Shown piece after piece: positions 10,555 through 29,143 of a DNA stretch of 29,143 nt. The notes beneath the pieces are model-generated. The model saw nothing but the letters and a program-made list of their open reading frames with translations. It made no database searches and was not told where the DNA came from. Position 1 is the first letter of the stretch, and each line of letters opens with the position of its first letter. The position numbers and the translations under genes are program-made. Origin of the DNA: Gammaproteobacteria bacterium (GTDB lineage Bacteria; Pseudomonadota; Gammaproteobacteria; Thiohalomonadales; Thiohalomonadaceae); assembly GCA_015232955.1 (NCBI GenBank), contig JADFYS010000001.1:1-29143 (forward strand), read 5' to 3'.

Positions 10555-10620
10555 TTTCAGGGCAATGCTATTAAGATAGTGACTGCGAAGGGAGATCCCC
10601 ACCCTTTGATTTTGGGTATA
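10555..10620 (+). mobile_element. Nested MITE relic: internally deleted IS4-like MITE inside a TACCC-family end
   Basis: 10563-10605 is the left end of the 15253 element (CAATGCTATTAAGATAGTGACTGCGAAGG) fused to its right subterminal GAGATCCCCACCCT. Flanks TTTCAGG and TGATTTTGGGTATA rejoin to a TACCC-family terminus. Confidence 0.65.
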
Positions 10621-10755: not shown

Positions 10756-12900
10756 TCACTTACTACGGTACTGATACACCCCGTCAAAATGGGTAGGTGG
10801 ATATTGTAGCAGCTCTTGGCAACGCTCGAGGTAGAGCTGGTAGAGTGGCTCTGGCCTCTGCTCCTGTATCTGCTGAAACCGCTCCTGCGCCTCTTGAAAC
10901 GCCCCCTGTTGATAGCAGGAGAGGGCCTGTCCGTACGCCTCGGCCTCTGCTGCTGCGGGGGGTGCCTCCAGCACCTGATAGATGGTTACAGGCTGCTGCT
11001 TCCCTTTCACCTGGATCCGATCCAGCTCCCGTAGCGGATAGCTCCGCTGTAGCCGCTCCCGTGTCTCTTCGGTGATAATAATTCGCGCCCCGTAGCGCTT
11101 GCACATCCCCTCCACTCGTGAGGCGAGATTGACTGCATCGCCGATGATGGTGTAGTCGGAGCGGCCGCTTGAACCCATCTCGCCTACAATGACCTCGCCG
11201 CTGTGAATACCGATCCCAATGTCGATGGTCACCCCAAACTGCTGTTGAAGAAGGCGGTTGACCTGCGGCAGGAGACGAAGCTGCTCCAGCGCAGTGGTGA
11301 CAGCGCTATCCGCGTGATCCGTCACCCGGTTGGGGGCGTTCCAGTAGGCCATTATCGCATCGCCAATCATCTTGTCCACCGTCCCCTGACTGTCGATGAC
11401 ACTGTCAACCATCGGCGTCATATAGAGGTTTAAGAGCGCAATCACCCGCTCGGGATCAGCGATCTCCTCGCAGAGGGTGGTGAAGTTACGCACATCGGAG
11501 AAGAAGATGGTGACCTCACCACGGTGTCCGATTAGGCGTTCGCTACCGCCATGTTTGAGAATATCCTCTACCACTGTCGCTGAGACCTTTCGCGCAAAAT
11601 TGGCCCGAATCATCTTCCGCCGACAGCTTTCGATGTAAAGATTGAGCAGCGCCGAAGAGGTGGTCATCCCGATAAGCAGCAGCAGGGGAAAGAGGAGGTT
11701 CACCACCAGCCGCTGCTCTAGCAGCACCATCTGCGCCACGGTATAGAACAGCCAGACGCAGCCAGCCACCACCGCCACCATCAACCACGCCGGTAGAAAC
11801 GGATAGAGTAGCGCCAGCAGCAGCCCGAAAGTCACCATTGTCACCACCTCTGCCCCGGTTAACCAGTCAGGGCGCTGCAGCTCTCTGCCATCGAGGAGGT
11901 TCTGCAGGGCGGTGGCATGAATCTCCACCCCCGGCATCGCCTTGTCAAAGGGTGTGGGACGGAGATCCACCAACCCGGTGGCGGTGGCACCGATAAGAAC
12001 AGTTCTCCCCGCCACCTCTTCGGGATCGAACCTGCCGCTGTAGATTGCAGCGGCACTGAGGTAGGGGAAGGTGTGGCCCGGGCCGTGGTAGTTGAGGTGA
12101 AGTAGTCCCCGATTATCGGTGGCGATACGCCGCGCCCCGATATCGATGGCGGTGATGCCGCTCGGCTGATGATCGATTTTTGGGATTTCGCCACCCTGCA
12201 GTAGTCGATAAAGCTCTAGCGCAATGGAGGGATAGAGCGCTCCTTTGTACTCCAGCAGCAGCGGAAGCTGGCGAATATCGCCACTGGCGGTGGGTAGGTA
12301 GTTCAAAAAACCGGCACTAATCGCCGCCTGTTGTAGCATAGGGAGGTTGGTCACTGCACCTGAGGCGGTGTGAAACCACTGCTCCTCTGCCTGCCAGCCG
12401 GGGGTTACACCTACGCTTCCCAAAAGGTGATCTACCACAGCCGTATCTTGCTGTTGATTCATCGTCAGAGCGTACCCCAGCACCACCGGTGTCGCGGCGA
12501 TGGTCTCTGCGAGGATGGCGTCATAGTCAGGGAGTCGTTCTGCAGAGAGACCAAATCGTGCCGCTATCGCTCCGGGTGAGGTGCGATCCGCCTCGGCAAA
12601 GATGATATCGATCCCGATCACCAGCGCACCGGCGCGATCAAGATTGGCGAGGATACGGGCGATCTTATGGCGCTCCCACGGCCACTGTCCCAACGCTTGC
12701 AGACTCGGTTCATCGACCGCGACGATAACCACCTCACCTCCCGGTGGCCGCAGACCGCGATCGCGCAGCAGTAGGTCCTGCAGCTGATTATCCAGCGGTT
12801 GCCACGCCCCGGGAAAAAGGAGGTAAAACGGGATCAAGAGCGAGAGGAGAAGAGTCCCCAGCGCAAGGTGTGGCGAAATCCGAGAGATGATTGTATTCAT
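10756..12900 (-). CDS. CHASE2-domain class III adenylate cyclase (TM-CHASE2-3TM-cyclase-TPR-like tail)
   Basis: CHASE2 motifs (VVIVAVDE.SL..LGQWPW.R, IGIDIIFAE.DR, LIGATA.GL.D...TP...MPGVEIHA), three TMs, then FFSDVRNFT, DKMIGDAIMAYWNAP and DYTIIGDAVNLASRVE (Lys/Thr ATP-specifying residues). Confidence 0.93.
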   Translation of the reverse strand: MNTIISRISPHLALGTLLLSLLIPFYLLFPGAWQPLDNQLQDLLLRDRGLRPPGGEVVIVAVDEPSLQALGQWPWERHKIARILANLDRAGALVIGIDIIFAEADRTSPGAIAARFGLSAERLPDYDAILAETIAATPVVLGYALTMNQQQDTAVVDHLLGSVGVTPGWQAEEQWFHTASGAVTNLPMLQQAAISAGFLNYLPTASGDIRQLPLLLEYKGALYPSIALELYRLLQGGEIPKIDHQPSGITAIDIGARRIATDNRGLLHLNYHGPGHTFPYLSAAAIYSGRFDPEEVAGRTVLIGATATGLVDLRPTPFDKAMPGVEIHATALQNLLDGRELQRPDWLTGAEVVTMVTFGLLLALLYPFLPAWLMVAVVAGCVWLFYTVAQMVLLEQRLVVNLLFPLLLLIGMTTSSALLNLYIESCRRKMIRANFARKVSATVVEDILKHGGSERLIGHRGEVTIFFSDVRNFTTLCEEIADPERVIALLNLYMTPMVDSVIDSQGTVDKMIGDAIMAYWNAPNRVTDHADSAVTTALEQLRLLPQVNRLLQQQFGVTIDIGIGIHSGEVIVGEMGSSGRSDYTIIGDAVNLASRVEGMCKRYGARIIITEETRERLQRSYPLRELDRIQVKGKQQPVTIYQVLEAPPAAAEAEAYGQALSCYQQGAFQEAQERFQQIQEQRPEPLYQLYLERCQELLQYPPTHFDGVYQYRSK

Positions 12901-14716: not shown

Positions 14717-14837
14717 AGGCAGATTGCGATGTCGAGCGACACCTTCTACCTCGTTCTCCTCTCTATCTTGATAAAGAGGGGAGAGAGACCCACCTAATGG
14801 CTCCAACCATTTTTTACGATAGAGTCGAGGTATCACT

Positions 14838-15161
14838 ATGGATCCACTAGCAAGAATTAAAGCTCAGGTCGAGGGCAATCCAGTTGTCATCTACATGAAG
14901 GGGACGCCTCAGTTTCCCAGTTGTGGTTATTCGAGTCGCGCCTCGCAGGCGCTGCAGCAGTGCGGAGTCCCTTTTGCGCACTTCAATGTCTTAGCTGATC
15001 AAGAGATCTATGAGAACCTTCCCAATTACGCCGACTGGCCCACATTTCCCCAGATCTATGTCAAAGGGGAGCTGATAGGCGGTCACGACATTGTGATGGA
15101 ACTCTTCCAAAAAGGGGAGTTAAAACCAATGCTTGAGGCTGCGGTTGCAGCCTCGGACTGA
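14838..15161 (+). CDS. grxD: Monothiol glutaredoxin Grx4/GrxD family
   Basis: YMKGTPQFPSCGYS, WPTFPQIYVKGELIGG; 107 aa; GAGG SD. Confidence 0.9.
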   Translation: MDPLARIKAQVEGNPVVIYMKGTPQFPSCGYSSRASQALQQCGVPFAHFNVLADQEIYENLPNYADWPTFPQIYVKGELIGGHDIVMELFQKGELKPMLEAAVAASD

Positions 15162-15202
15162 TATTTGTTGACAGAATCACCAGGACTTTCTCTGGCAGCA
15201 GA

Positions 15203-15230
15203 GGAACTGTCTCTGACGGTTACTGTCTCA
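15203..15230 (+). promoter_or_regulatory. Putative ECF (sigmaE-type) promoter of msrAB
   Basis: GGAACT-N16-GTCTCA matches the GGAAC(T)-N16/17-GTCnnA pattern. Confidence 0.5.
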
Positions 15231-15252
15231 TCACTTTAGGGTGGATGTGAGG

Positions 15253-15407
15253 CAATGCTGTTAAGTTAGTGGACTGCGAAGGGATCTCCGCTACCCGATT
15301 GACGGGTGTCGATGGCATGGACGCCATCGTCAAGCCCCCATGGACGGGTTTACGGCGTCCCGCCAATCGGGTAGCGGAGATCCCCACCCTTAAACTTAAT
15401 GACATTG
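15253..15407. mobile_element. 155-bp IS4-family (IS4 subgroup-like) MITE
   Basis: TIRs CAATGCTGTTAAGTT / AACTTAATGACATTG; perfect 10-bp TSD GGATGTGAGG (15243-15252, 15408-15417); internal 21-bp perfect inverted repeat enclosing two hairpins. Confidence 0.88.
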
Positions 15408-15424
15408 GGATGTGAGGCGGTGCA

Positions 15425-16540
15425 ATGAAAAGCAGATTTAGCGGCAAGATAGCCGCTCTTTTGGGAGTGGTGGGGCTATCGACAGTGGTGGCGACCGTGC
15501 AGTTAACAGCAGAGGAGGCGACGATGGGTGAGGTCAATGAGAGAGCGGTAGCCACTTTTGCCGGGGGATGCTTCTGGTGTGTCGAATCCGGTTTTGAAAA
15601 AGTCCCCGGTGTCGGGGATGTCATCTCCGGTTATGCCGGTGGCGAAACGGAGAACCCCACCTACGCCGAGGTATCCGCAGGAGGTAGCGGACATCTTGAG
15701 GTGGTTCAGGTTCATTATGACCCGGAGAAGATCGACTATCGAACTCTGCTGGACTATTTTTGGCGGCAGATAGATCCCACAGACATTGGGGGGCAGTTTG
15801 TCGACAGGGGGAGCCAGTATCGCCCCGCCATCTTCTACCACAACAGCATGCAGAAGCAGGCAGCAGAGGCGTCGCGGAGAGAGCTGAATGAGAGTGGTCG
15901 CTACTCGCAGCCGGTAACGATTGAGATTCTTCCCTTCACCAAGTTCTACAGTGCCGAGGAGTACCATCAGGACTACTACAAGAAAAATCCTGTTCGCTAT
16001 AAATTCTATCGTTTTAACTCTGGGCGCGATAGCTATCTTGAAAAGGTGTGGGGTGAGGATCTTCATTTTCAGCCCAAAGCGCCGCAGTCACAGAAGGGGC
16101 AGCAGTACAAACAACCGGAAAGCTCGTCGCAGTTGCGCCAGCGGCTTACCCCTTTACAGTACGATGTAACCCAGAATAACGGTACAGAGCGCCCCTTTGC
16201 CAATGAGTTTTGGGACGAAAAGCGACAAGGGATCTATGTTGATATCGTCTCTGGAGAGCCTCTGTTTTCGTCGCAAGACAAGTTTGACTCCGGCACCGGT
16301 TGGCCGAGCTTTGTCAGGCCGCTCGCTGCAGAGAACATTGTTGAAAAGGTCGACTCATCGCTGTTTATGAGCCGAACCGAGGTGAGAAGTCGTTCCGGGA
16401 ACTCTCACCTGGGACACCTATTTGATGACGGCCCCCAACCAACTGGGTTACGCTACTGCATTAACTCGGCCTCGCTTCGATTTATTGCGAAAGAAGATCT
16501 GGAAAAAGAGGGGTATGGCCAGTTTCTGTCACTCTTTTGA
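15425..16540 (+). CDS. msrAB: Bifunctional peptide-methionine sulfoxide reductase MsrA-MsrB with signal peptide
   Basis: [19 protein letters not shown] and AEEYHQDYY (MsrA); [33 protein letters not shown] (MsrB); Sec-type N-terminus. Confidence 0.95.
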
Positions 16541-28303: not shown

Positions 28304-28456
28304 ATAACCCAGGAACCCTGAAAACGCTGGTTCCAGAAAGCAGATAAGGGCGACTCTTCTCGGCTCTGGCTCCTGCTTCGCACTACCTTCTGCATCCTTG
28401 CAGTCGTGCGTGATGTAGCCTTTGAATAGCCACACTTCTCAACCCCCTTGGGTATA
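28304..28456 (+). mobile_element. TACCC-family MITE (copy B, about 150 bp, both ends present)
   Basis: Left end ATAACCCAGGAACCCTGAAAACGC, right end CTTGGGTATA; about 100 bp aligns ungapped with 29019 onward at roughly 85-90% identity. Confidence 0.75.
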
Positions 28457-28513
28457 ACGCTAATTCTGCTATGATGGGCATCCGCTGATCATACCATATC
28501 ATCCTCAATACTC

Positions 28514-29011
28514 ATGGCCAAGGTTACCCTTCTCGACACCCCGTTTAACCCCGAAGCTGCTCAGCTCCGTTTTCGCTCTGGACGCCCCGATTGCGGTGCG
28601 GTGGTCAGTTTTTTGGGCCAGATGCGGGATCTCAACGACGGCGAATCGGTGCAGTCGATGTTTCTTGAACACTACCCAGGGATGACCGAAAAGGCGCTTG
28701 CAGAGATCATCGCCACCGCAGAGCAGCGCTGGCCCGTGGCAGCGATTGAGGTGATTCACCGGGTTGGCACACTGCAGCCGGAAGAGCCGATTGTGCTGGT
28801 GTTGGTGGCCGGTACCCATCGAAGTGAGTGCTTTCGCGCCTGTGAGTTTGTCATCGACTATCTAAAGACCGCAGCACCTTTCTGGAAAAAGGAGGTGACC
28901 GCAGCCGGAGAAGGACGCTGGGTGGATGAGCGGCAGAGCGATCACGCTGCCAGTGAGCGCTGGCGTGACGAACTCACAGGGGGAGCTCCTGCCGCCACTC
29001 CATTACGGTGA
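28514..29011 (+). CDS. moaE: Molybdopterin synthase catalytic subunit
   Basis: GAVVSF.GQMRD, FLEHYPGMTEK.L, VIHRVG.L, HRSECF.ACEFVIDYLKT.APFWKKE. Confidence 0.95.
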   Translation: MAKVTLLDTPFNPEAAQLRFRSGRPDCGAVVSFLGQMRDLNDGESVQSMFLEHYPGMTEKALAEIIATAEQRWPVAAIEVIHRVGTLQPEEPIVLVLVAGTHRSECFRACEFVIDYLKTAAPFWKKEVTAAGEGRWVDERQSDHAASERWRDELTGGAPAATPLR

Positions 29012-29016
29012 CGGCA

Positions 29017-29143
29017 TATACCCAAGATACCTGGAAACGCTGGTCCCAGAAAGCCGAAAAGTTCGACTCTTCTCGGCTCTTGCTCCTGCTTCGCCCTACC
29101 TCCTGCATCCATGCAGTCGTGCATTTTCTGCATTCCGTCCATC
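29017..29143 (+). mobile_element. TACCC-family MITE (copy C, runs off window)
   Basis: TA-TACCCAAGATACCTGGAAACGC 5 nt after the moaE stop; homologous to copies A and B. Confidence 0.78.

Follow-up and report, generated by a model that had tools for sequence, protein, structure and literature searches.

A TwoAYGGAY-type RNA motif packaged in a multicopy MITE upstream of msrAB in a gammaproteobacterium

The leader of the msrAB gene of this gammaproteobacterium contains a non-autonomous transposable element (MITE) flanked by a 10-bp target duplication. Judged from its sequence and predicted structure, the interior of the element is the known TwoAYGGAY RNA motif (RF01731) and not a new one. The element is a sub-threshold, MITE-packaged addition to TwoAYGGAY, for which the CsrA hypothesis has already been published. 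On balance, it is probable that this is simply one MITE copy with a TwoAYGGAY core, and that any RNA- or CsrA-related role would lie at the level of the repeat family, with none having evolved for msrAB. Features of the window, meaning the entire 29,143-nucleotide stretch of DNA that was analysed, are listed in Table 1.

Table 1. Coordinates of the element, its parts and its neighbours in the window
Feature	Position	Strand	Evidence or remark
Degenerate short MITE derivative (left end and part of right arm, without the core)	10563–10608	+	End-sequence scan
Glutaredoxin gene (grx)	14838–15161	+	PF00462
Terminator-like hairpin at the end of the glutaredoxin gene	15133–15156	+	Consensus scan only
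Left target-site duplication GGATGTGAGG	15243–15252		Identical to 15408–15417
Full-length MITE copy, 155 bp	15253–15407	+ (GGA-loop strand)	BLAST; copy alignment; R1 match 15284–15381 at 98.8 bits
Left terminal inverted repeat CAATGCTGTTAAGTT	15253–15267	+	Inverted pair with right end, 15 nt at 80%
RF01731 alignment	15267–15398	+	37.6 bits, E 7.5e-5, model positions 1–168 of 168
Basal P1 stem, 5′ arm	15281–15306	+	Inverted-repeat search; RNA fold; relatives
Hairpin 1, GATGGC-ATGGAC-GCCATC, hexaloop AUGGAC 15317–15322	15311–15328 (15310–15329 with extra pair)	+	
Hairpin 2, CCC-AUGGAC-GGG 15337–15348, loop 15340–15345	15332–15351	+	Sequence; fold
Basal P1 stem, 3′ arm	15359–15384	+	Inverted-repeat search; RNA fold; relatives
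Right terminal inverted repeat AACTTAATGACATTG	15393–15407	+	Inverted pair; copy alignment
Right target-site duplication GGATGTGAGG	15408–15417		GGAUGU 15408–15413 and msrAB Shine-Dalgarno GAGG 15414–15417
msrAB, fused methionine sulfoxide reductase A and B with N-terminal signal-like segment	15425–16540	+	PF01625 1.4e-63; PF01641 5.1e-48

The element is short, non-coding and multicopy. BLAST searches with the 155-bp query located copies or fragments at 78 places in the element's own assembly, a MAG of 2.6 Mb in 485 contigs that is 72% complete; 44 of these 78 places abut contig ends, so the repeat breaks up the assembly. The ends of full copies are conserved (CAATGCTATTAAGTT...AACTTAATGACATTG, of the type CAATG...CATTG). 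Among 24 end-bounded units of this genome, nine are flanked by perfect 10-bp repeats and three by repeats matching at 9/10, and mismatched flank pairs, which served as the null, matched at a maximum of 7/10. Similarly, the genome of a sister species in the same genus (G001) contains approximately 18 diverged copies (75–84% identity) with ends CAATGCCATTAAGTT and 10-bp duplications; six of its 14 end-bounded units have perfect 10-bp flanking repeats, and two more have repeats at 9/10. At several loci, derivatives of ~59–75 bp comprise the ends only, with target duplications intact. The inverted ends, the 10-bp target duplication and the many copies bear out the description of the element, in an earlier note on this DNA, as a mobile miniature element. 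A HIP1-type GCGATCGC in one flank had pointed to a cyanobacterium; this reading was discarded, HIP1 being only ~4-fold over chance and csrA being found in nearly all the relatives. The stretch 28355–29143, which belongs to a second repeat family, gave no match to RF01731 or to the covariance model R1 and was kept separate from the MITE family.

The same note had labelled the element 'IS4-like'. Duplications of 10 bp fit IS4/IS231-type or ISAs1-type enzymes and are not diagnostic. In the element's own genome, as represented by the 72% complete MAG, no transposase lies between any two ends spaced more than 260 bp from each other, and no PF01609 (DDE_Tnp_1) transposase was detected in this MAG. 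Four PF01609 matches occur in the sister genome, and none of them is bounded by MITE-like ends. The label is unsupported, as no parent element was found. Two end pairs were tried as parents and rejected: a 4845-bp pair in the window, one end of which is the degenerate short copy at 10563, and a 2.1-kb pair in the sister genome, which is situated inside kinase and regulator genes.

Within the element, GGGATCTCCGCTACCCGATTG at 15281–15301 pairs perfectly with 15364–15384 to form a 21-bp basal stem, and an inverted-repeat search extended its arms to 26 nt at 96%, with one mismatch. This stem encloses two hairpins, and all the coordinates originally given for the stem and hairpins hold on direct reading. 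C15310–G15329 provides a seventh pair to the stem of hairpin 1. For hairpin 2, the minimum-free-energy fold contains an alternative, AAGCCC/GGGUUU with an 8-nt loop. Direct reading also confirmed that the two hairpins share a hexaloop: each AUGGAC is closed by a C–G pair and is displayed on the + strand, in the sense orientation of msrAB. CAUGGACG is present twice in the element, 23 nt apart.

Folding of RNA 15240–15430 gave a minimum free energy of -85.6 kcal/mol (z = -4.43), and none of 200 shuffled sequences folded as well. The centroid structure, which contains the 21-bp perfect duplex, has a free energy of about -73 kcal/mol. The ATGGAC stretches form loops in both the minimum-free-energy and centroid folds, with unpaired probabilities of 0.98–1.0. 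By itself, CANGGANG shows no enrichment: this 8-mer occurs 13 times in the window, where ~20 would be expected. The above-chance signal is the whole architecture and not this 8-mer, since the architecture recurs ~78 times in the element's own genome and is present in many other genera.

An Rfam scan of a 201-nt slice returned RF01731 as the best-scoring family for the element, at a score (37.6 bits) below the gathering score of 43 bits. Scanning with Rfam at the gathering score detected only a tRNA. Another copy in the same genome (C61) matched RF01731 at 33.2 bits. The 15 loci scored in other genera all fell short of the cut-off, so this gammaproteobacterial subfamily generally lies below it. 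One element in a further genome, G092, scored 43.8 bits with RF01731, above the cut-off, and 55 bits with R1 at the same place and on the same strand, indicating that the two families are continuous.

The TwoAYGGAY motif was described by Weinberg et al. (2010, Genome Biol 11:R31), and was extended in a 2026 preprint (bioRxiv 10.64898/2026.09.22.753630) that noted its multicopy, mobile-like behaviour and left transposon-like movement open. The architecture of the window element agrees with both accounts. The large basal P1 stem of TwoAYGGAY, often ~24 bp in the Weinberg supplement, corresponds to the 21 perfect pairs here (26 at 96%). Two sequential hairpins leave the basal stem, as seen in the folds and with both helices supported in 72 relatives, and the AYGGAY of both terminal loops is here AUGGAC twice, with AUGGAU in loop 2 of most sister copies. 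Both the motif and the window element are gammaproteobacterial, multicopy, intergenic and not consistently in 5′ UTRs. The window element differs in that its hairpin 2 is much shorter than the Rfam consensus, and it is without the extra hairpins, pseudoknot and flanking GMTBT repeats of TwoAYGGAY in Pseudomonas. Furthermore, it is packaged between CAATG...CATTG ends with a 10-bp duplication, a packaging that was not found reported in the literature searched.

A second catalogued RNA, Ysr224 (Yersinia sRNA 224, RF02770), belongs to the same genomic repeat: a core-pattern copy from Yersinia proxima is a 94-bit RF02770 match, and the window element also matches RF02770 weakly. RF02770, however, models the opposite strand, with loops AUCCAU, the complement of AUGGAU, and so represents the antisense of the GGA-displaying RNA. 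Among the observations that sit against the preferred reading of a MITE copy with a TwoAYGGAY core are the missed RF01731 gathering score and the opposite-strand listing of the Yersinia copy as Ysr224.

Relatives of the core were collected from many genera and their covariation was examined in an alignment of 72 distinct sequences, in which three helices and the junction were counted. The search pattern fixed loop 2 and a 22-mer and left loop 1 unconstrained. Paired cells made up 85.3% of the alignment, compared with 60.7% after shuffling (none of 500 shuffles reached the observed value) and 38–48% when the partners were slid. Changes on both sides were seen in 30 of 39 pairs, including all 23 basal-stem pairs and all seven pairs of hairpin 1. 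In the unconstrained loop 1, the ANGGAY consensus reads A in 64/72 sequences, N, G in 72/72, G in 69/72, A in 70/72 and Y in 68/72, and the closing pair is C–G in 63/72. GGA is therefore better conserved than its neighbouring bases in this loop, a feature that the earlier note had put forward as a check on its proposal together with covariation. Both hairpins with ANGGAY hexaloops are conserved and covarying, and do not stem from the accident of a single palindrome. The invariance of loop 2 and the 22-mer in the same alignment reflects ascertainment, because both were fixed by the search pattern. Copies in the sister genome that were found by BLAST include the loop 2 variants AGGGAU, AAGGAU and AGGGAC; in G092 and another genome, G141, the R1 matches have a diverged core.

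Copies within the element's own genome are too alike to say much about GGA-specific selection. Their six GGA sites hold three deviations where 9.7 were expected, and the low variability extends over the whole of hairpin 1 (1.0–1.5% versus 3.6% overall) instead of being confined to the GGA bases. This similarity, together with the lack of enrichment of the 8-mer in the window, would be expected if the GGA hairpins were functionless chance features of a palindromic junk repeat. Such an origin is extremely improbable: in many genera the GGA of the loops hardly varies next to stems that covary freely, and the architecture had been recognised independently as an RNA motif. In addition, 59 distinct hairpin-1 stems were counted among 75 sequences, which argues against recent horizontal copying of one sequence.

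A scan with the 22-mer GCCCCCANGGANGGGTTTACGG, using one genome per species, located at least 120 stretches. The matches listed include Stenotrophomonas, Yersinia, Serratia, Marinobacter, Zobellella, Rheinheimera, Methylotuvimicrobium, Microbulbifer, Cellvibrio, Sedimenticola and others. Their common layout, which is also that of the window element, consists of a variable basal stem and a variable-stem hairpin with an ANGGAY loop, from which a 4-nt linker leads to the core. R1 gave 29 matches in the element's own genome; of 150 genomes, one per family of the class, 35 had matches, in copy numbers from 1 to 27 or more. When palindrome boundaries were used as anchors, the only clear 10-bp case in other genera was Methylotuvimicrobium (L129), which has a duplication of 9–10 bp and ends CAGCAATTCCCA. 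Exact 8-mer target duplications in other genera (30/73) were no better than in chimera controls (17/73), and the ~105-bp palindromes of Stenotrophomonas and other genera mostly have no duplication at the palindrome boundary. In genome G114, the core lies inside a repeat of at least 380 bp that has a third ANGGAU hairpin and no 10-bp duplication; G141 has different ends and likewise no 10-bp duplication. As the packaging differs between lineages, the conserved unit appears to be the core, with a varying vehicle.

The association of one core with repeats that have different outer parts (in the element's own genus, Methylotuvimicrobium, G114 and G141) also fits a core that acts at the DNA level, as a hairpin or cruciform recognised by the repeat-moving machinery or by a host DNA-binding protein, in which case RNA and CsrA would be irrelevant and the GGA loops would serve recognition between protein and DNA. 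The patchy multicopy distribution among the sampled families and the absence of a transcriptional orientation bias are in keeping with this, and the covariation of a palindromic repeat could be maintained at the DNA level. However, G–U pairs exceed A–C pairs on the GGA strand of the unconstrained helices (141 versus 76), and G–U or A–U occurs at column 53 of the proposed hairpin 2; DNA hairpins would not tolerate these. Read from the aligned sequences, the G–U excess provides modest evidence of RNA-level constraint on the GGA strand. Moreover, the 10-bp duplication points to a cut-and-paste enzyme acting on the ends and not on the core, and the core-less short derivatives still have intact target duplications. 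A DNA-level role of the core is consequently considered unlikely, if still deserving of some weight.

At the msrAB locus, the Shine-Dalgarno sequence GAGG lies 7 nt before the ATG, in the right copy of the duplication. Because GGATGTGAGG contains the Shine-Dalgarno sequence, its downstream copy preserves the original Shine-Dalgarno–ATG spacing and leaves msrAB translatable. In the sister genome, a gap of just 12 nt separates grx from msrAB and the element is absent (L177), which indicates that the insertion is specific to the lineage studied here. The MITE inserted at this site in the msrAB leader and thereby duplicated the Shine-Dalgarno sequence. Under the preferred reading, further points are inferred. 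The insertion would be lineage-specific and without sign of selection at the msrAB site. Transcription from an upstream start would then yield a leader RNA with a three-way structure of ~-73 kcal/mol and two exposed ANGGAY hexaloops, 23 nt apart. Such a geometry would suit one dimer of an RNA-binding protein, for which CsrA/RsmA is the leading candidate under the published hypothesis. Any role would be that of the repeat family, whose copies could offer dispersed decoy sites on read-through transcripts, and the element would not be a device for regulating msrAB.

The earlier note had gone further, proposing that a mobile CsrA-binding cassette might bring msrAB under Csr control. By occupying both hexaloops, CsrA would repress or stabilise the msrAB mRNA, perhaps bridging to GGAUGU, which lies directly upstream of GAGG. 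The window copy is indeed sense-oriented with its two CAUGGACG hexaloops at 23-nt spacing, csrA is very probably present, and a possible ECF-type promoter (GGAACT-N17-TCTCA, 15203–15230) was read by eye upstream of the element; a consensus scan found no promoter-like site in 14750–15500. Against this proposal, the hexaloops lie 70–95 nt upstream of the Shine-Dalgarno sequence and do not overlap it, unlike in classical CsrA-repressed leaders, and only the unstructured GGAUGU abuts it. The predicted accessibility of the Shine-Dalgarno/AUG region shifts only from 0.65 without the element to 0.43 with it, which is not decisive. The sister species has no insertion, and hence no conserved regulatory history is apparent.

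Nor do the copies show an orientation or distance preference relative to neighbouring genes. In the element's own genome, sense/antisense counts were 16/21 upstream of genes, 14/23 downstream of genes and 4/5 between co-directional genes; the corresponding counts in the wide set were 28/27, 31/31 and 14/7. Given this unbiased orientation, roughly half of the copies would be read on the strand without GGA, and Csr control of msrAB is a conjecture. With copies pointing either way and the hairpins at such a distance from the Shine-Dalgarno sequence, the proposed control of msrAB is unsupported and, in our judgement, distinctly unlikely.

The long stem might alternatively act without CsrA, as an RNase III-type substrate or a 5′ stabiliser that alters the processing or half-life of msrAB mRNA. 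RNase III cleaves duplexes of roughly 20 bp, Correia elements are processed by RNase III, and effects of Correia and ERIC repeats on mRNA processing or half-life have been described in other bacteria. A duplex of 21–26 bp, 21 of them perfect within the -73 kcal/mol centroid structure, would suit such a role. The conservation of the loops across genera is left unexplained by it, and as an account of the element it is quite improbable. A stem acting in this way would be compatible with the preferred reading.

The link between TwoAYGGAY and CsrA has been proposed previously. Gardner and Eldai (NAR 2015; RMfam) found that a CsrA-site model matched TwoAYGGAY and proposed CsrA sequestration, Rfam has filed RF01731 in clan CL00106 together with CsrB, and the 2026 preprint restates the sponge idea for TwoAYGGAY. 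No experimental test of CsrA binding or mobility for TwoAYGGAY was found in the literature searched. In the window element, ANGGAN loops are closed by C–G pairs and the two sites are 23 nt apart. Reportedly, the sites of a CsrA dimer can be spaced 10–63 nt apart. An RNA read from the GGA strand would have the sequence and spacing expected of a CsrA dimer site, and on this point the original proposal of CsrA-type geometry stands as a prediction.

The element resembles the CsrB/CsrC/RsmX/Y/Z RNAs of clan CL00106 in its C–G-closed GGA hairpin loops, at a spacing suited to CsrA dimers. It differs from these sponges in that its unit has only two sites, and the TwoAYGGAY repeat is dispersed as dozens of copies in both orientations. 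No dedicated promoter and no GacA/UvrY box (TGTAAG-N6-CTTACA) were found near the element, unlike in CsrB/Rsm sRNAs, and nothing above cut-off was found for the CsrB and RsmZ families in the element's own genome and four relatives.

The presence of csrA in the organism had been assumed at the outset. No csrA (PF02599) was found in the MAG (72% complete), so that the gene itself was not recovered; the assumption fares better by comparison with relatives. The sister genome has one copy, in the gene order alaS–ask (aspartokinase)–csrA (L192), and csrA is present in 22 of 24 genomes of the same family. A contig of the MAG (C253: alaS, ask) is syntenic with the sister locus; it breaks off 71 nt beyond the stop codon of ask, within a copy of the MITE. 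As this contig ends at a MITE copy where csrA is expected, csrA was most likely lost at the assembly break, and this synteny suggests that the organism very probably has the gene. The MITE copy lies in the ask–csrA spacer, before csrA, and its orientation is opposite to that of ask and thus probably also to that of csrA.

Among high-quality genomes of the class sample, csrA was present in 25 of 25 element-positive genomes, and the element was found in none of 16 csrA-less genomes. A one-sided Fisher test gave P = 0.019, although relatives in the sample are not independent data points, and genomes that have no csrA are often reduced ones in which repeats are missing in any case; this co-occurrence is weak evidence. 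The csrA tallies include the unpublished genome G063, in which csrA is present without the element, and omitting it alters one count and no conclusion.

A broader role in Csr regulation can also be envisaged, in which TwoAYGGAY cores are the cargo of cut-and-paste MITEs that scatter CsrA/RsmA dimer sites and so rewire the Csr regulon gene by gene, msrAB being a fresh example. Read-through transcripts would then form a dispersed sponge that is tunable by copy number. This is an unlikely account as matters stand. One copy even adjoins csrA, in the ask–csrA spacer.

The Correia elements of Neisseria, the enterobacterial ERIC repeats and the IS231-derived MIC231 are likewise palindromic intergenic repeats of ~100–170 bp that have inverted ends and duplicate their targets. 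Co-transcription with adjacent genes is common among them, and they can change how mRNA is processed. Their sequences and target duplications (TA in the case of Correia) differ from those of the window element, and we know of no Correia, ERIC or MIC231 element with a TwoAYGGAY core.

Since its description in 2010, TwoAYGGAY has remained an orphan among RNA motifs, and it is abundant, with matches in 35 of 150 sampled families and dozens of copies in some genomes. What the present analysis adds to the literature is the inverted-end and 10-bp target-duplication signatures, by which at least one lineage of the motif moves like a transposon. The msrAB leader provides a natural test locus, at which a sense-oriented copy lies immediately upstream of an intact Shine-Dalgarno sequence and is absent in the sister species. 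If CsrA binding proves true, these mobile repeats would offer a route to rewire post-transcriptional regulons; if it does not, the motif would need another partner.

The absence of csrA from the MAG is most likely the result of a contig break at a copy of the MITE. On contig C253 of this genome, a MITE copy is found 71 nt beyond the stop codon of an aspartokinase gene, and the contig ends there. Comparison with L192, a locus of the same-genus sister genome G001, revealed csrA at the place matching this copy. From this comparison, the MITE copy would be located in the csrA upstream spacer. It is oriented opposite to the adjoining aspartokinase gene, and so probably opposite to csrA as well.

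At msrAB, three direct copies of ACTKTCTC, with spacings of 21 and 16 nt, are located upstream of the inserted MITE. They overlap the sequence GGAACT-N17-TCTCA, and this region could provide a candidate ECF-type promoter or candidate regulator sites for msrAB.

Shortened forms of the MITE also occur. The window holds a degenerate derivative, a short distance past the 3′ end of ORF 10756-12900, which lies on the minus strand. Elsewhere in the genome, derivatives of 59–75 bp retain only the ends of the MITE, with their 10-bp duplications intact. The junctions vary among these derivatives, which suggests that the palindromic centre was lost more than once. Junction GGGATATCCCC, common to three of the five, may mark a short subfamily that has transposed in its own right.

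Coordinates of MITE copies, derivatives and related features
Feature	Location	Strand	Detail
MITE copy	C253:2-154
Compared locus of sister genome G001	L192:617-841
ACTKTCTC copies	window 15185-15229
Degenerate short MITE derivative	window 10563-10608		left end and part of right arm; lacks core and right end
Short MITE derivatives, own genome	C79:3112-3170, C164:1155-1213, C177:3154-3212, C147:196-270, C28:5784-5842
Insertion subfamily with GCTCCTGC hairpin	L045-L048, L052, L053 (G001); L082, L129 (Methylotuvimicrobium); L101 (Porticoccaceae)
Second repeat family	window 28355-28420 and 29060-29143	minus	GGA-rich
Yersinia proxima copy	L061:375-481
RF02770 (Ysr224) match	window 15303-15397	minus	Rfam model

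In other genomes, one TwoAYGGAY-type subfamily carries an insertion of ~50–56 nt in place of the hairpin-1 loop, with its own hairpin around GCTCCTGC. Its recurrence across distant genera marks this insertion as a conserved form and not the product of random damage. In genome G114, the core is part of a repeat that spans 380 bp or more (L193-L202). This repeat has a third hairpin, GGTGC-AGGGAT-GCACC, whose loop reads A/G-N-GGAU, similar to the TwoAYGGAY variants with additional AYGGAY hairpins described in a preprint (bioRxiv 10.64898/2026.09.22.753630). Element copies are also paired, inverted or in tandem, ~130–370 bp apart (L057, L107, L116 and L121), like reported Pseudomonas doublets.

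A second repeat family in the window includes CUGC-AAGGAU-GCAG and CUGC-AUGGAU-GCAG. Its assignment to the family of the MITE core was rejected, as it matched neither RF01731 (TwoAYGGAY) nor R1, our covariance model of TwoAYGGAY-type elements; the two families are therefore distinct.

A Yersinia proxima copy, found by the core pattern, scored 94 bits with RF02770 (Ysr224) on the opposite strand, and the same model weakly matches the MITE in the window. Judged from these matches, Ysr224 is the reverse complement of a TwoAYGGAY-type repeat, such that two Rfam families cover opposite strands of one element. A review named Ysr224 as one of the annotated sRNAs with the highest prevalence, and such prevalence is in keeping with a multicopy repeat.
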